Assembly (NCBI GenBank): GCA_965219385.1
Contig: CBDCNM010000002.1
Coordinates: 2,860,305-2,924,304, forward strand
Direction: 5' to 3'
Source: Candidatus Latescibacterota bacterium
GTDB taxonomy: Bacteria; Latescibacterota; UBA2968; UBA8231
Length of the DNA stretch: 64,000 bases
Part shown: in pieces, positions 3,033 through 39,804 of the stretch
Position numbering within the stretch: the first letter of the stretch is position 1
Layout of the letters: every line of letters starts with the position of its first letter
Program-made: the position numbers and the translations under genes
The notes under the pieces: generated by a model
Seen by the model: the letters and a program-made list of their open reading frames with translations, nothing else
Told to the model about the DNA's origin: nothing
Databases searched by the model: none

Positions 3033-3057
3033 CCACCCGGGCCCTGCGGATCCTGAG

Positions 3058-5639: not shown

Positions 5640-5779
5640 GCCAGGGCCGTGGCCCACTCGATACTTTGCCTGGAATAATCAGGCGGGAAGGGAACCAGTC
5701 GTAGGTGACCAGCTCGACAAAGCCGGTATAGCCGACTTCTTTGAGGGCGCCAAACACGGCTTCCCAGTCCACGATATCC
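5640..5779 (-). pseudogene. Remnant C-terminal fragment of a sugar phosphate isomerase/epimerase (xylose-isomerase-like TIM barrel).
   Basis: Translation ...DIVDWEAVFGALKEVGYTGFVELVTYDWFP... is the typical C-terminal motif of that family. No N-terminal part exists; the fragment abuts a solo MITE end. Confidence 0.4.
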
Positions 5780-5829
5780 CCAGAGGCACAATCCCTGCAC
5801 GGCCAACCGCCGATTCCGTGAAGTACTGA
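5780..5829 (+). repeat. Solo right-end fragment (~50 bp) of the MITE-like repeat family.
   Basis: ccagaggcacaatccctgcacggccaaccgccgattccgtgaagtactga matches the right ends of the copies at 11501-11604 and 39540-39788. Confidence 0.6.
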
Positions 5830-8415: not shown

Positions 8416-8453
8416 GGGACTTATGGAACCAGCACTCCTAATCGACAAAGTAA
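8416..8453 (+). repeat. Left copy of a ~35-bp direct repeat flanking the PhyH-aminotransferase-aspartate DH-like unit.
   Basis: gggacTTATGGAACCAGCACTccTAATCGAcaaAGTAA versus ggggatTTATGGAACCAGCACTgtTAATCGAAGTAA at 11401-11436. A 16-nt exact core plus further matches. Confidence 0.5.
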
Positions 8454-11400: not shown

Positions 11401-11436
11401 GGGGATTTATGGAACCAGCACTGTTAATCGAAGTAA
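11401..11436 (+). repeat. Right copy of the ~35-bp direct repeat (see 8416-8453).
   Basis: Same orientation as the left copy. Lies 80 bp upstream of the nadX-like start on the opposite strand. Confidence 0.5.
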
Positions 11437-11500
11437 CCTAGGCCAACAAAGCGGAACGGCTGTTGGTCTTGGAGCGTCCGCAGATCCTGCTCCATGACAA

Positions 11501-11604
11501 TCGGTACTTCACGAAATACCCGTATTTGGCCCTCAAGGCCGTGCGGGGATGTTGCCAGAGGCACAATCCCCGCACGGCCAACCGCCGATTCCGTGAAGTA
11601 CTGA
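11501..11604 (+). repeat. Short (104-bp) member of the MITE-like repeat family with both TIRs.
   Basis: tcggtacttcacgaaat ... atttccgtgaagtactga. Internal sequence matches both ends of the 245-bp copies. Confidence 0.65.
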
Positions 11605-11701
11605 CAATCTCAGTGAGCAAGATATCCGCGAACATGTCAAACGACGCAAAGCGCGGTGAACAGGGACGACGAGCGCGGGCGGGCTTTGACCGCCGGTAAA
11701 A

Positions 11702-15997: not shown

Positions 15998-16924
15998 AAG
16001 CCGTTTTAAAACCCCTGTGGTTATGCGAGTCGTTTGAGCAACAGATGGGTCATCGCAATGTAAATGAGGGCTTCGCTATTCCGTGTCAAGACTTCATAAT
16101 CCTTCGAGAGACGGCGAAAATTCAACAACCAAGCAAAGGTGCGTTCAACCACCCATCGCCATTTCATCACCTGAAATCCCGGGCCTTCTCGTTCGACCAC
16201 TTCCAAGTCAATTTTGTGGGTTCGCTTCAAACGGGCAACCCACTCTTTCAAGGTCTCACCCGAGTAGCCGCCGTCGCCCCACAGCTTGCCAAGCCGCGTC
16301 CAGCCAGCGGCCCAATAGCGTTTGAGTAACTCCATCAGCCCGTCCCGATCCGCCAAGTCGCCTGCCGATACAAACGCAGAGAGGATCAACCCCAGCGTAT
16401 CGACAAGGAGATGGCGCTTGCGGCCATTGACCTTCTTGCCAGCATCGTACCCTTTTACTTTACCTTGTGTTGCGGTCTTGATGCTTTGAGCGTCTATACT
16501 GCCTGCTGAAGCGGCGGGCTTGCGACCTTGACGACGTCGCTCCCTTCTTGAGAGGGCCTGATGGATCTGCTGGAAGAGGCCTTCTTCGCTCCAGGTGTTG
16601 AAATACCTCTACACGGTTTGCCAGCATCCATACTCTTTGGGCCGCATCCGCCATGGGCATCCCGTCTTGGTCAGATACACAATGCCGTTGAACACTTGGC
16701 GCAGATTGACGGGTGGGCGACCCGGACCGCCCGGATGCCATTTGCGTTTGGGCCGCAGCGTCAGGAGAAGTTGCCATTGCGCTTCGATCAAATCTGTCGG
16801 ATATTGCCTTTGCGTATTCATCCTTATCCTTTCGTTTCAGGTGGTTTTGGACAACCTGAATTTGGATAGATGAATACGCACTTTCCACTTTTTTCTCTAC
16901 TCCTCTACCTTTTTAAAACAGCTT
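15998..16924 (-). mobile_element. IS5-family (IS1031/IS427-group-like) element, 927 bp. TIR AAGC(C/T)GTTTTAAAA, flanked by CTTAG.
   Basis: aagccgttttaaaa at 15998-16011 and ttttaaaacagctt at 16911-16924. CTTAG at 15993-15997 (includes the BFN gene stop codon TAG) and at 16925-16929. Confidence 0.7.
16021..16821 (-). pseudogene. IS5-family transposase (267 codons) interrupted by one in-frame amber codon.
   Basis: A single frame encodes MNTQRQYPTDLIEAQWQ...GCPWRMRPKEYGCWQTV-TAG-RYFNTWSEEGLFQQIHQAL...GYDAGKKVNGRKRHLLVDTLGLILSAFV...FAWLLNFRRLSKDYE. The TAG at 16609-16611 sits where family members have Tyr (WQTVYRYF). No frameshift is needed. Confidence 0.7.
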
Positions 16925-16952
16925 CTTAGGCCGTTTTTGGTCGCAACGCGAT

Positions 16953-16990
16953 GAGCCCCTTCGAAGTAACTCGAAGGGGCTCATTTTTTA
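16953..16990 (+). terminator. Rho-independent terminator (12-bp perfect stem GAGCCCCTTCGA / TCGAAGGGGCTC, loop AGTAAC, then ATTTTTTA).
   Basis: Seen directly in sequence. It lies immediately downstream of the IS5-like insertion and was probably the original terminator of the BFN gene (and/or the convergent sodC). Confidence 0.7.
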
Positions 16991-17000
16991 TGGGCTGGAG

Positions 17001-18167
17001 CTAAGTACACGACAGTAAGCTAAGTGGTGGTACGGCCCTGATTTAGGTTTATTTGTAATCGGTCCAACTACCAATAAAGTGGCTAAACCCAGGAGCCGCA
17101 CCATGCTTATTCATACGCTCAAAAAAGCACTTACGCAAGGGCGCGTCCCCCTTACGCGCCACCGTATCGAACTCGTCAGTCGGTTCGTGTGTGCGCTGAT
17201 GCAAGTGCGTTCGGTCAATATGAAAAAACTCGCGTGTAGTCTGTCGGGGCTGGCTAACGTTGAAAGTCAGTATCGTCGCCTTCAGCGTTTTTTTAGCAGC
17301 GCGGTCTCCCCGGCGGTGTTTACCGAGTTGATCGTCTCCAAGTTGGTTGGCCCCGGCCAGCCCCAGGTGTTAGTCATGGATCGTACCCATTGGAAGTTGG
17401 GTCGCACCGATCTGAATGTGTTGTGTGTAGGCTTGGTTGATCAAGGCGGGTCTATTCCGTTGGTCTATCAGTCGTTGCAAAAGCCGGGCAATTCCAACAC
17501 CGACGAACGCAAGGCGCTGCGGACCAAGGTGTGGTCCTACCTCGATCCGGGCGCGTGCTGTCTGGTCGCCGAGCGCGAATTTATCGGTCGAGACGGGTTT
17601 GCTTTTCGGTTGAAGCAGCCGGTCGATTTTGTCCTCCGCCGGCGCGGTAATACATCGCTTACCCTCGACGATGGTCGGCGGCGCTATGCGGCCACCTTCA
17701 ATGCACGCATGCCCCGAGGCACCACCCGATACGATCCACACACGACACTTGATGACGGGCTGAGCTTGAATGTGGTGGGTCACCGTCCCACCCACGGCCA
17801 ACGCATCCTGCGGATCACCCATCGAACCGACCTCCAACAGGTGCTTGATTTATATGGCCAGCGCGGGGCTATCGAGACGGCATTTGCTTGTTTGAAATCG
17901 AGGGGCTTTACCCTCGAAGATACCCATTTGACCCCTCCCCAACGCTTGCACTTGCTGCTGGGATTACTGGCGTGGACGCTCCTGGGGGCACTACTGGTAG
18001 GACCGCAGCTACATCAAAGAAAACCCATCCTCCTAAAAAAACATGGACGAAGAGCCATAAGCCTCTTTCGAAAAGGATTAGACCCACTCACACAGATCAT
18101 ACACCAAGCACGAGACCAACCTAAAATCACCCGACAATATCAACCCATTTTACTGTCGTGTACTTAG
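17001..18167 (+). mobile_element. IS4-family-like element, 1167 bp. Perfect 18-bp TIRs CTAAGTACACGACAGTAA / TTACTGTCGTGTACTTAG; inferred 9-bp TSD GGGCTGGAG.
   Basis: TIRs at 17001-17018 and 18150-18167. GGGCTGGAG at 16992-17000 and again at 21148-21156, beyond the later nested insertions. Confidence 0.7.
17103..18167 (+). CDS. IS4-family DDE transposase (354 aa). Its stop codon TAG is the last 3 nt of the right TIR.
   Basis: MLIHTLKKALTQGRVPL...LVMDRTHWKLGRTDLNVL...LVDQGGSIPL, typical of IS4-type (DDE_Tnp_1) transposases. AGGAG RBS before ATG 17103. Confidence 0.65.
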   Translation: MLIHTLKKALTQGRVPLTRHRIELVSRFVCALMQVRSVNMKKLACSLSGLANVESQYRRLQRFFSSAVSPAVFTELIVSKLVGPGQPQVLVMDRTHWKLGRTDLNVLCVGLVDQGGSIPLVYQSLQKPGNSNTDERKALRTKVWSYLDPGACCLVAEREFIGRDGFAFRLKQPVDFVLRRRGNTSLTLDDGRRRYAATFNARMPRGTTRYDPHTTLDDGLSLNVVGHRPTHGQRILRITHRTDLQQVLDLYGQRGAIETAFACLKSRGFTLEDTHLTPPQRLHLLLGLLAWTLLGALLVGPQLHQRKPILLKKHGRRAISLFRKGLDPLTQIIHQARDQPKITRQYQPILLSCT

Positions 18168-19614
18168 CTCGACTTTATCCATTTATGTAGCGTACGAGAC
18201 GGTGTGTATCAAGCGGTTGAGTAGGCTTCGAGGGATTTTTATCAGGTCGTGTTGGTTGGGCAGGTTGGAAAAAGCCTGCCAGAGCCGTTGTCGGACCCAG
18301 GCCACGGCATCGGAAAAGGTGGGTTTTCGTTTGCCATACCAGGCCGTGGCATGGCAGGGGGAGGCGCTTTTGGGGGCCAGCCGATTGGCGATGAGGGCGA
18401 CCAGACTAAACAAGGCCAAGATGACCGGCGTGGTCCGGGCAATGGCCCGCTCATTCCATTGGCGTTGGGTTTCCATGCCCAGATGGGCGCGGGCTTCCTC
18501 AAAGGTAGTTTCTACCGACCAGCGTTGGAGAAAATAGGTCAGCATTTGCCGAGGGGACAGACGCACATCGGTCGAGAGCAAGGCTTGGGGCGCGAAGCGG
18601 CCGGCCGGGTCTCGGATCAGCAGCCAGCGGAGGGGCACGGCGGGCAAGCCAGTGTGATACCACAGCGCCGTTTGGCTGTAGGTTTCCACTGTATAGGGGC
18701 CGGCGGCATACCACCGGTCCAGGGTGAGGGGGTGCCAAGGGGTAGTCGGATCGTTCAGGTGCTGCTGGAGGGTGGGCTGCCGGGCGCCTTTGCCGCGGGG
18801 GCGTCCCCGCGTGTGCGGCGTGCGGGTTGGTGGTGGGTCATACAGGGCCGCATCCAACCGCAAGCGGGTAATCAGCCCCACGTGGGGCCGAACCGCGTCG
18901 AGAAAGGCCAAGGCGGAGAAGGTGCTATCGGCGACCACGACCAGCCGGCGGGTGGGCAGCCAGCGCGCTACCAGCTTGAGCATAGTCTGCCCCCGTTGCA
19001 ACAGGGTGAGGGGGGTGCGCTGGCGCTGAGTATAGTAGCGGGCCGACGGACACAGCACACTCATAAAGGGTAAGGCCCAACTTCGATCCGCCCAAGGGAT
19101 AGGCGCTACCAGCATCAACGACAGCCAGCGCAAGCCGCTAGCCTTGACCAGGTGGGGCCCACTCGAGCGGACGGGATCCCGGTAGATGCCTCGGGCCCCA
19201 ATCTGGGCGCCCCGGCGCCGCTCGATGGTCTCATCCAGGCCCAGGACCAGGGGCCCGTGGGGGGCAAAGGCGGCCACCAACGCCTGGAGGAGTAGCTTAC
19301 TGCCGGCCAGGGGCGACCACACACAGCGGTTGAGGATCCGGTGGTAGGTTTGAAAGGTAGGCTGTTGGCTCAAGCCCAACACCTCCAACACGGCGCTGAC
19401 CGTGCGTTTACCCGGGGCTAACAGCGCCCCGACCAACAGCGTCTGAGCCTGCGGCCAAACGCGGCTCGAAAAAAGGGGGGCAAAGGGCGACAAAATCGTT
19501 ATTATATCCTTCGGCAGGGGGCTCATCGGTTTCTCCTGGGCTGTCGATGCTTGGATACCATCAACAGTACGGAGGATACCGGCCTCCTGCCATGCGCGTT
19601 TGGATAAAATCGAG
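18168..19614 (-). mobile_element. IS701-family-like insertion sequence, copy 2 (1447 bp), inserted at CTTAG at the tip of the IS4-like right TIR.
   Basis: Identical to 3058-4504 except for one substitution (c at 3667 versus t at 18777). CTTAG at 18163-18167 and 19615-19619. Confidence 0.85.
18183..19526 (-). CDS. DDE transposase, IS701/IS4-superfamily-like (447 aa); a D-to-N variant of copy 1.
   Basis: Protein identical to the 3073-4416 product apart from HLDDPTT becoming HLNDPTT. Confidence 0.85.
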   Translation of the reverse strand: MSPLPKDIITILSPFAPLFSSRVWPQAQTLLVGALLAPGKRTVSAVLEVLGLSQQPTFQTYHRILNRCVWSPLAGSKLLLQALVAAFAPHGPLVLGLDETIERRRGAQIGARGIYRDPVRSSGPHLVKASGLRWLSLMLVAPIPWADRSWALPFMSVLCPSARYYTQRQRTPLTLLQRGQTMLKLVARWLPTRRLVVVADSTFSALAFLDAVRPHVGLITRLRLDAALYDPPPTRTPHTRGRPRGKGARQPTLQQHLNDPTTPWHPLTLDRWYAAGPYTVETYSQTALWYHTGLPAVPLRWLLIRDPAGRFAPQALLSTDVRLSPRQMLTYFLQRWSVETTFEEARAHLGMETQRQWNERAIARTTPVILALFSLVALIANRLAPKSASPCHATAWYGKRKPTFSDAVAWVRQRLWQAFSNLPNQHDLIKIPRSLLNRLIHTVSYAT

Positions 19615-19619
19615 CTTAG

Positions 19620-21143
19620 CAGGCCGTTGAAAAAGGCTGAAAAGTTCTGCTATATCAAAAATAGGCGACTTGGCATACAAGTCTATTCTTTCTATTCTAG
19701 ATTAGTAATAGCTGAAGGAGGTTGTTGTATGTCGATGAGCAAGCGTCGAGAAAGTCAGCAGCAGGAGATGTGGGTACAGACCCATGACCTGCCCGAGGCG
19801 CCGGGGCATCCGTTTTATGCCCAACTCAATAAGCTGCTGGCATCGCATGGATTTGATGCCTTCGTGGAAGCGCGCTGCGCCCCCTATTATGCGGAGACCT
19901 TGGGACGACCCAGTATTGCCCCCGGGGTCTATTTCCGCATGCTCATGATCGGCTATTTCGAGGGCTTGGGCTCGGAGCGCGGCATGGACGGGCGGGTCGC
20001 CGATTCGCTGGCCTTGCGCCACTTTCTGGGCTACGCCTTGACCGAGACCACACCGGACCATTCGAGCCGGTCGCGCATTCGTCAGCGCCTGCCGCTGGAG
20101 GTGCATCAGGAGGTCTTCAACTGGGTGCTGAAGGTGCTGGCCCAGGAAGGCCTGCTCAAGGGGAAGACAGTGGCGGTGGACGCCACCACGCTGGAGGCCA
20201 ACGCCGCCCTGCGCCGCATCGTGCGGCGCGACAGTGGGGAAAGCTACCACACCTATCTGGAGGGGCTGGCCCAGGCCGAAGGCATCGAGACGCCGACGCG
20301 GCAGGATCTGGCCCAGCTCGACCAGAAGCGTGCGCACAAAGGCTCCAACCAGGACTGGCAACACCCCCATGACCCGGAGGCGCGCATTACCAAGATGAAA
20401 GACGGGCGTACCCACTTGGCGCACAAGGCGGAGCATACGATCGATCTGGACACCCAGGCCCTGGTAGCGATTCAGGTGTGCGGCGCTGACGAGGGCGATA
20501 CGGCGTCTCTGCCCTGGAGTCTGCTGCAGGCCTCCATGAATCTGGAGGCGAGCCTGGTCGCCGAGGCGGCTCACAAAGGACGGCCGCCGCCGCCCGTGCT
20601 CACCGAAGTGGTAACGGACAAGGGCTATCACAGCAATTACACCGCCAAGACGTTGAAGCGCGCTCAGATCCGCAGCTACCTTTCCGAACCCGGTCGCGGG
20701 CGCCGCCAGTGGAAGAATGATCCCCAGGCCAAGGCGGCCGTGTATGCCAATCGGCGTCGCATACGAGGGGTCCGTGGCCACGCCCTGCAACGGCTTCGCG
20801 CTGAGTACGCGGAACGCAGTTTCGCCCACGCTTATGAAACGGGGGGCCTGCGACGCACGTACCTGCGCAGTCAGGACAAGATCTATAAACGCCGGTGTAT
20901 TCATGGCGGCGCTTTTAATCTGGGGTTGGTGATGCGCAAAATCACCGGGAAGGGGACTCCGAGGGGTCTCCATGGCCTGATATCGGGCTTTTTCGTCGTT
21001 ACTAACCGGCTCAAACGGGCTTGGGATCGCATTAGCAAAGGTCTGGGTGCTTTCGAGACCTTTGCTTGCAAATGGAGGTTCAAGATCGGTGCCGTCCTAT
21101 CCCACAGTGCATTGTGCAAAAACCCTGGTTTTTCAACGGCCTG
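19620..21143 (+). mobile_element. IS1182-family-like element, 1524 bp. 15-bp perfect TIRs CAGGCCGTTGAAAAA / TTTTTCAACGGCCTG; 4-bp TSD TTAG.
   Basis: TIRs at 19620-19634 and 21129-21143. TTAG at 19616-19619 and 21144-21147. Confidence 0.75.
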
Positions 21144-21147
21144 TTAG
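19729..21147 (+). CDS. IS1182-family (IS5-superfamily) transposase with DUF772-like N-terminal domain (472 aa). Its stop codon lies in the TSD.
   Basis: GRPSIAPGVYFRMLMIGYFEGLGSERGM... is the hallmark N-terminal domain. GAAGGAGG RBS before ATG 19729. The ORF reads through the right TIR and stops at TAG 21145-21147. Confidence 0.8.
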   Translation: MSMSKRRESQQQEMWVQTHDLPEAPGHPFYAQLNKLLASHGFDAFVEARCAPYYAETLGRPSIAPGVYFRMLMIGYFEGLGSERGMDGRVADSLALRHFLGYALTETTPDHSSRSRIRQRLPLEVHQEVFNWVLKVLAQEGLLKGKTVAVDATTLEANAALRRIVRRDSGESYHTYLEGLAQAEGIETPTRQDLAQLDQKRAHKGSNQDWQHPHDPEARITKMKDGRTHLAHKAEHTIDLDTQALVAIQVCGADEGDTASLPWSLLQASMNLEASLVAEAAHKGRPPPPVLTEVVTDKGYHSNYTAKTLKRAQIRSYLSEPGRGRRQWKNDPQAKAAVYANRRRIRGVRGHALQRLRAEYAERSFAHAYETGGLRRTYLRSQDKIYKRRCIHGGAFNLGLVMRKITGKGTPRGLHGLISGFFVVTNRLKRAWDRISKGLGAFETFACKWRFKIGAVLSHSALCKNPGFSTAC

Positions 21148-31033: not shown

Positions 31034-31059
31034 CTCTTGCTGCTTTTAAATAAGGACCA

Positions 31060-31302
31060 TCAGTACTTGACGAAATGAGCGAACGGCCGTGCGGGGCTTG
31101 TGCCTCTGGCGTTTTATGAGGCCCAGGGCGCTCTTGCCCCTCGCCACACCCCCAGGTAGGCCTGAATCCCAGAGCCTCCTTTTCCCCGCTCCAGCCCCTA
31201 CCCCCTCCCTGCTGCTGCGCCTGCTCGCAGTCCCCACCGCCCTGCCGGCACCCCTCCCGGCCTTGAGGTCCAAATAGGTACGGGTATTTCGTGAAGTACT
31301 GA
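31060..31302 (-). repeat. Full-length (243-bp) MITE-like element with 17-bp TIRs.
   Basis: tcagtacttgacgaaat ... atttcgtgaagtactga. Reverse complement of the copy at 39540-39788. Confidence 0.7.
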
Positions 31303-31305
31303 CTA

Positions 31306-31340
31306 TCAGTACTTGACGAAATGAGCGAACGGCCGCAAGG
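31306..31340 (-). repeat. Partial tandem second copy of one MITE end.
   Basis: tcagtacttgacgaaatgagcgaacggccg repeated directly after the full copy. Confidence 0.5.
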
Positions 31341-31349
31341 GGACCTCGA

Positions 31350-39348: not shown

Positions 39349-39539
39349 GATGAGGCGAATTTACTCCGGGGACAAAACCCTGTCAAGAGTTGCTGACTAG
39401 GCGCGGGCGCGGCAGGGGAGATCGAAGCAGTTTTTGCAATCTCTTCGGTATTGGGTATTGCGCAATGCCCTTCAAAGCGGGGTGAGGAGTGGTTGACAGC
39501 AAAGATAATATTCCATATTTTAAAAGGCTTATCTAAAAT

Positions 39540-39788
39540 AGCTCACGAAATACCCGTACCTATTTGGACCGCAAGGCCGGAAGGCCGGGAGGGGATGTTG
39601 CCGGCGGCGTTTTATGGGGGGTGGAGCGAGGAAAAGGGAGCTCTGGGACTCAGGCCTGCCTGGGAGGGTGGGCTGCGAGCCGGCGTAGCAGTGGGAAGGA
39701 GGAGCGGGGCAAGAGCGCCTTGGGCATCATAAAACGCCAGAGGCACAAGCTCTGCACGGCCCCGCCCGCCGATTTCGTGAAGTACTGA
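39540..39788 (+). repeat. Full-length (~249-bp) MITE-like element, inverted relative to the copy at 31060-31302.
   Basis: Left end agctcacgaaatacccgtacctatttggacc (tip slightly degenerate); right end ccgatttcgtgaagtactga. Confidence 0.7.
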
Positions 39789-39804
39789 AAATTTAAGGAT
39801 GGGT

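Follow-up and report, generated by a model that had tools for sequence, protein, structure and literature searches.

Insertion sequences (IS) of the ISH3 family were defined by De Palmenaer, Siguier and Mahillon (2008, PMC2266710) as elements of 1225-1500 bp with CRGT ends and with 4-5-bp direct repeats bounded by A and T. In the ISH3 transposases the motif Y-(2)-R-(3)-E-(3)-(R) replaces the full YREK, and in 2008 the family was considered "so far restricted to archaea" (PMC2266710). In a 2022 survey, ISH3 was still strongly biased towards archaea and present in fewer than nine phyla. The ISH3-class element ISHsal1 is associated with the 5-bp duplications AGTAT and AGTTT (Pfeiffer et al., PMC7002104), while the Halobacterium catalogue in the same publication assigns no MITE to the ISH3 class.

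The subject of this study is a family of short repeats in a 64-kb stretch of bacterial DNA, referred to here as the window. We conclude, with high confidence, that these repeats are non-autonomous MITEs of the ISH3 family, probably mobilised in trans. An earlier note had called them MITE-like, and this reading is borne out. The elements are short and lack an ORF, they have terminal inverted repeats (TIRs) and a polar interior in common, they are flanked by 5-bp target-site duplications (TSDs), and the orthologous sites in a syntenic relative, L185, are empty.

Repeat copies and their target-site duplications

The window was searched for the 17-nt tip TCAGTACTTCACGAAAT, allowing up to 3 mismatches. 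Seven sites were found, each with no more than one mismatch: 5813-5829 (-), 11501-11517 (+), 11588-11604 (-), 31060-31076 (+), 31286-31302 (-), 31306-31322 (+) and 39772-39788 (-). Chance expectation is a mean of 0.05 sites, and 0/100 dinucleotide-preserving shuffles reached 7. BLAST and nhmmer profiles of both end types recovered five L ends, one each in A, B, C, D and E, and three R ends (A, B and C), with no further end of either type in the window. The family consists of three two-ended elements, A, B and C, plus two one-ended fragments, D and E (Table 1). All five loci reported in the earlier note were recovered at their positions by the tip search and by reading the sequence. That they arose from chance similarity or from an assembly artefact has next to no probability, given the shuffling result and the presence of the same sequence in three independent long-read assemblies as well as in short-read contigs.

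Table 1. Repeat copies, flanking 5-mers, neighbouring sequence features and transposase genes in the 64-kb window.
Feature	Position	Strand	Size	Sequence or remark
IS701 gene	3073-4614			
Gene remnant	~5680-5779	-		(GDIVDWEAVFGALKEVGYTGFVEL...), in frame
Fragment D	5780..5828	-	49 bp	one-ended, L end; inner edge fused to gene remnant
Left TSD of C	11497..11501			ACAAT
MITE copy C	11502..11603	-	102 bp	tips CGGTACTTCACGAAAT ... ATTCCGTGAAGTACTG
Right TSD of C	11604..11608			ACAAT
IS5 fragment	16021-16389	-		
IS4-family gene	17079-18167	+		
IS701-family gene	18183-19526	-		
IS1182-like gene	19600-21147	+		
Left flank 5-mer of A	31056..31060			ACCAT
MITE copy A	31061..31301	+	241 bp	L end left; tips intact, CAGTACTTGACGAAAT ... 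ATTTCGTGAAGTACTG
Right flank 5-mer of A	31302..31306			ACTAT
Fragment E	31307..31345	+	~35-40 bp	one-ended, L end; ends ~5 nt before permease stop codon
Promoter-like site	39493-39521			TTGACA-17-TATTTT, upstream of ndk
Left TSD of B	39535..39539			AAAAT
MITE copy B	39540..39787	-	248 bp	L end right; R tip degraded
Right TSD of B	39788..39792			AAAAT

Alignment of the copies revealed a fixed polarity, with an L-end architecture of ~50 nt and an R-end architecture of ~45 nt in common. The L end consists of the tip followed by CGGCGG..GGCCGTGCGGGGATTGTGCCTCTGGC, and the R end of the tip followed by ACCCGTA(CC)TATTTGG.CC.CAAGGCCGG. Between the ends, a central segment of ~140 bp is homologous in A and B and absent from C, which otherwise has the A/B architecture and folds as a near-perfect hairpin. 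Overall identity between copies A and B is ~68%; it reaches 98% between C and D over 50 nt and 100% between E and A over 30 nt. The TIRs are 16-17 bp long, with 1-2 mismatches between both tips within A and within C. One tip of B is degraded: the R tip on its left side (39540) reads AGCTCACGAAAT and was missed by the mismatch search because it is 4 bases shorter than CAGTACTTCACGAAAT. The terminal bases read CGGT, which CRGT allows, at the R tip of C and CAGT at its other end as well as at A, B, D and E. All three two-ended elements are free of ORFs and fall within the rough 50-500 bp size range of MITEs.

These results refine the earlier description. A and B had been described as full copies of ~245 bp in opposite orientations, which holds for their sizes and orientations, but the left tip of B is degraded. 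The partial tandem end reported beside A (fragment E) exists, and its end type is L. Copy C had been taken for a 104-bp deletion derivative with both TIRs, in keeping with its two ends and missing central segment. Fragment D had been called a solo right end; it carries an L end, the same end type as E. The termini, whose inconsistency would have spoken against a mobile-element family, are consistent and are also present on complete ISH3-type elements (see below).

For the analysis of duplications, element boundaries were taken as CRGT...ACYG and the flanking 5-mers were read outside these. The two-ended copies are flanked by 5-bp direct repeats of the form A-N-N-N-T. The earlier note had named TSDs as something to look for, and they are perfect at B and C, whereas the flanks of A agree at 4/5 positions. 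At B, the duplication presupposes that the tip has lost 4 nt. Nothing but the right 5-mer of A separates A from fragment E, and E has the private L-end variants of A. From this we infer that A was either duplicated locally or joined by a further insertion at its own duplicated target, with a deletion afterwards.

Two other readings of the flanks were considered and rejected. A 3-bp duplication, with T...A counted as part of the element, describes the same sequence in most copies, but a small element from another genome (L040) is flanked by TCAAT/TCAAT, which favours a duplication of 5 bp rather than 3 bp. An origin from IS630/Tc1-like elements, which have TA duplications and CAGT ends, does not fit flanks that are not TA and an associated transposase of the ISH3 type.

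Insertion sites and the host genome

Copy A occupies the spacer that separates an ABC-transporter permease gene (stop 31350) from a gene for an NMT1-type binding protein (start 31033), both on the minus strand. A and E lie inside one ABC-transporter operon, with A 27 nt upstream of the NMT1-type start codon. Copy C is flanked by the tatC stop (11702) and the start of an aspartate-dehydrogenase-like gene (11320), again both on the minus strand. Copy B is located between the promoter-like site listed in Table 1 and the ndk RBS and start codon (39805), 17 nt from the ndk start. The copies had been placed mostly between convergent or divergent genes in the earlier note. This has to be corrected, since A and C are between co-directional genes and only B is between divergent genes.

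If the site at 39493-39521 is a promoter, copy B is probably within the ndk 5' leader as an insert of ~250 nt. Copy A and fragment E would likewise split the ABC-transporter operon. The longer ndk leader and the split operon could alter expression of those genes.

The inner edge of D adjoins the gene remnant of Table 1. The remnant, the 3' part of a gene, weakly matches the C-terminal portion of a xylose-isomerase-like TIM barrel (AP_endonuc_2, E 0.023). The junction suggests a deletion that may have extended from inside MITE D into the remnant gene. A separate 30-nt motif, GGGAYTTATGGAACCAGCACTNNTAATCGA, occurs at 8416-8445 and 11402-11431 with 90% identity, both times in intergenic DNA; one copy is 70 nt from MITE C and is not part of it.

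Two of the sites could be compared with L185, in which UvrC is 73% identical. The distance from the HD-domain gene to ndk is 237 bp in L185 and 457 bp in the window, and the distance from the permease gene to the NMT1-type gene is 8 bp and 317 bp, respectively. No tip sequence was found within 21.8 kb of L185. Judging from the shorter spacers and the lack of a tip, both comparable sites (A and B) are empty in this relative. L185 has CAAAT at the position aligned to the left AAAAT of copy B, and TTGACG...TATGTT in place of the promoter-like site upstream of ndk.

The host of the family is probably a Latescibacterota bacterium, since the best organism-labelled UvrC relatives (68-74% identity) are all Candidatus Latescibacteria/Latescibacterota except for one labelled Gemmatimonadota. 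The window is 99.97% identical over 20.4 kb to a 4.2-Mb long-read metagenome contig (ENA ERZ25072670) and 99.95% identical over 21.8 kb to a 5.7-Mb contig from another sample, on which A and B are both present. An empty site was sought in the near-identical strain L184, where both MITEs (A and B) are present. Among three near-identical host assemblies (99.95-99.97%) there was no presence/absence polymorphism, and hence no sign of recent movement. Short-read Logan contigs break inside B (L102 and L103, at 39721) and inside D (L193, at 5800), as expected at a multi-copy repeat. These breaks are indirect evidence that the sequences of B and D may be repeated elsewhere in the host genome.

A rival reading is that the copies are host-selected structured repeats, either REP/BIME-like or cis-regulatory RNA hairpins, whose likeness to IS ends is secondary. 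Such repeats would affect transcription termination, mRNA stability or translation of adjacent genes. Consistent with this, the hairpin of C is strong (-60 kcal/mol, z = -8.7), the copies occupy intergenic DNA near gene starts (the NMT1-type gene for A, ndk for B), and B is downstream of a promoter-like site that is kept in L185. We nevertheless consider it extremely improbable. The folds of A (z = -2.5) and B (z = -1.0) are hardly, if at all, more stable than those of shuffled sequences, and mismatches in the extended arms of A and B come without compensatory changes. L185 does without the elements at both sites, and the copies have TSDs and transposon ends. No copy matches Rfam 15, either at the gathering score or at E values up to 5. 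REPs are 20-40-nt palindromes without TIRs or TSDs and are tied to RAYT (IS200/IS605-type) proteins. Membership of a riboswitch or REP/BIME family had been raised in the earlier note as the finding that would overturn the MITE reading; there is no Rfam match, and the copies differ from REPs or BIMEs in size, TIRs and TSDs. An intrinsic terminator was also considered and rejected. There is only a weak 5-bp stem followed by a T-run in the L end, and it points away from the neighbours in A and B.

Elements with the same ends in other genomes

A 596-Gb genome collection was scanned with the degenerate tip TCRGTACTTSACGRAAT, for which ~500 chance matches were estimated. The scan returned at least 100 matches, most of them chance. 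Among 100 matches listed, 12 have a second, inverted tip 58-1292 bp away. Ten of these loci belong to Chloroflexota (Anaerolineae, Caldilinea or others), a further one to a Latescibacterota chromosome, and the last is the complete element L094 described below. The other 11/12 are small elements of 75-242 bp, distributed, among the matches listed, over Chloroflexota and one Latescibacterota genome. Perfect 5-bp duplications, described by A-N-N-N-T, flank 9/11 small elements; the flanks of L014 and L033 are unmatched. The interiors of the small elements are unrelated to those of the window copies and mostly unrelated between genomes, which suggests that MITE families may have been born repeatedly and independently from an ISH3-like IS clade.

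The genome-specific interiors found between ISH3-type tips fall into L014/L033, L021/L038, L027, L040, L044, L056, L067, L088 and L020. L014 resembles an L033-type element that has undergone deletion.

L094 (Anaerolineae bin.56) is a complete element of 1309 bp with the same tips, flanks ATACT/ATACT and a 404-aa ORF. The ORF matches NCBIfam NF033541, "ISH3 family transposase" (E 3.3e-58, profile positions 4-298 of 298), and also Pfam DDE_Tnp_1. Its score of 197.2 bits is below the curated NF033541 equivalog cut-off of 225, so we regard the clade as a divergent bacterial branch of the ISH3 family, below the equivalog level. In tblastn searches the L094 transposase is 34-36% identical to cyanobacterial relatives and 28-30% identical to haloarchaeal ones. 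Relatives on annotated plasmids bear the label "ISH3 family transposase", and PGAP already gives cyanobacterial members this name. At least 1178 proteins match the L094 transposase at E <= 1e-20, most of them on ~1.3-kb contigs that are typical of collapsed IS copies.

An alignment of 21 relatives of the L094 transposase (A2), in which Y308, R311, E315 and R319 are invariant, was used to retrieve 80 metagenome loci. A complete element of 1245-1341 bp was present at 69/80 loci (transposase relatives, 41-66% identity). These elements have a single transposase ORF, coding for a protein of ~372-421 aa, and are bounded by CAGTA[GC][AT]TCACGAAA ... TTTCGTGA[AT][GC]TACTG. Among the retrieved loci (L104-L183), elements of the commonest bacterial ISH3-like subgroup are 1245-1246 bp long, with CAGTAGTTCACGAAA(A/G)GGCTTG ends and AT-rich insertion sites (ATTAT or ATAAT). 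On short contigs the left and right flanks are often unequal, probably through chimeric assembly.

Statistics were pooled over the 62 elements whose contigs include both flanks (61 of the 69 plus L094). Conservation is 97-100% at end positions 1-5 and 8-13 and 93% at positions 14-15, with CAGT at positions 1-4 in at least 98% of elements. In the flanks, A occupies -5 in 99% of cases and T occupies -1 in 100%, with T or G at -4 and A or C at -2. The favoured target is thus a near-palindrome, A(T/G)N(A/C)T. On metagenome contigs, these full-length elements have equal 5-mers on both sides in 12/62 cases, which is not clearly more often than in shuffled pairs (mean 6.6, maximum 16). The unequal 5-mers probably stem from short-read assemblies that are chimeric across a 1.2-kb repeat, given that the small elements on genome contigs have matching flanks.

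The tips in the window match the consensus of the complete elements apart from isolated differences: position 9 is G in the L tips of A and E, position 13 is G in the L tips of C and D, and the R tip of C has CGGT. The earlier note had proposed looking for a parent element with the same termini. Complete ISH3-type elements with such termini do occur in other bacteria, while neither the window nor ~18.5 kb of flanking sequence holds one. Since the termini are those of ISH3-family IS, the kind of parent is identified.

One might suppose that each locus is the wreck of a separate full-length ISH3-type IS, internally deleted in situ, that never moved as a small unit. D and E are clearly truncated, the tip substitutions affect positions that are 97-99% conserved in complete elements, and the host assemblies show no polymorphism, all of which would agree with decay in place. 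This explanation appears very unlikely, though, because A, B and C share a non-coding interior (~50 nt at L, ~45 nt at R, and the central segment in A and B) and are at different sites with different duplications. The same junctions are not expected from independent deletions, and the internal sequence resembles no transposase coding sequence. MITEs that moved as small units remain our preferred reading.

The transposase that would mobilise these MITEs was sought in several places. The earlier note had held that it is not encoded in the window, and we agree. Four transposase types are present there, IS701 (two copies), IS4, an IS5 fragment and IS1182-like, and none is ISH3. A tblastn search of the window with the L094-type transposase gave only matches with E > 3. 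No further repeat copy and no ISH3 gene were found in ~18.5 kb adjoining the window (9 kb on the right, 9.5 kb on the left). None of the best 120 of at least 1178 relatives of the L094 transposase (at least 51% identity) is on a megabase contig, so the host probably lacks a close homologue of this transposase. As for the resident IS, those at 16021-21147 form a nest, and the two IS701 copies share a repeat that starts at 3053 and 18163, with the first 300 nt identical.

The window elements were also compared with all retrieved loci by BLAST, and nothing matched beyond the tips. Since only the tips are in common with the recovered complete elements, the MITEs are not simple deletion derivatives of those elements. 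A 25-nt internal signature of the window family had 0 matches in JGI metagenome contigs.

Proposed mobilisation and relation to known systems

The following mechanism is proposed from the sequence comparisons. The MITE termini of 16-17 bp (CRGTACTTCACGAAAT) are the ends recognised in a bacterial ISH3-family IS clade. An ISH3-family DDE transposase encoded elsewhere would bind both inverted ends and excise or copy the element. Insertion at a 5-bp A-N-N-N-T target by staggered cuts would then create the 5-bp direct duplication. The transposase may be supplied by another region of the genome, by a past resident element or by an incoming mobile element. We infer mobilisation in trans. The family now appears to be largely decaying, because two copies are truncated, one tip is degraded, conserved end positions carry substitutions and A and B are only 68% identical.

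A broader picture can be assembled from these observations, and we consider it rather unlikely to hold as a whole. There may be a large and mostly uncharacterised bacterial ISH3 branch with a near-invariant 15-nt end, CAGTA-S-W-TCACGAAA, and transposases that are only ~42% identical. This branch would have repeatedly spawned unrelated MITE families in Chloroflexota and Latescibacterota. Copy B, as a leader insert of ~250 nt, would now be part of the ndk expression signal, and the host lineage may have no resident parent. In that last case, mobilisation by transposases on transient incoming mobile DNA would be implied.

In kind there is nothing surprising about the family, which is mechanistically ordinary selfish DNA. 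Its practical importance is that such repeats break short-read assemblies and could pass for regulatory RNAs or yield spurious ORFs. It adds MITEs to the ISH3 family; no paper with these terminal sequences, or describing ISH3-derived MITEs, was found in the literature searched, which did not cover ISfinder, and it is plausible that the family is undescribed. The at least 1178 matching proteins also document an abundant bacterial ISH3-like clade in a family long seen as essentially archaeal.

The relation to known systems can be summarised as follows. The window elements resemble ISH3 IS (ISH3/ISH27, ISHsal1, ISHvo21) in their CRGT ends and in the 5-bp duplication bounded by A and T. The complete elements with window-type ends fit the ISH3 family in length (1245-1341 bp), in the single DDE transposase of ~400 aa with the Y-2-R-3-E-3-R motif, and in the NF033541 match. 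Unlike ISH3 IS, the window elements have no transposase gene and are only 102-248 bp long. The associated transposase clade is bacterial, the available organism labels being Chloroflexota, in contrast to the mainly archaeal ISH3 family, and the small elements are also found in Latescibacterota. REPs and BIMEs are similarly intergenic, repeated and able to form hairpins, but the window elements differ from them in their size, their 16-17-bp TIRs, their 5-bp TSDs and their DDE-transposase IS ends. The closest parallels are MITEHsal of Halobacterium (PMC7002104) and SM/SMN1 of Sulfolobus (PMC3718332), which are likewise short and ORF-less, with TIRs homologous to those of an IS and TSDs typical of the partner IS, and which are also multi-copy and often hairpin-forming. 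Unlike these, the window family has an internal sequence of its own, and its parent is not among the elements recovered.
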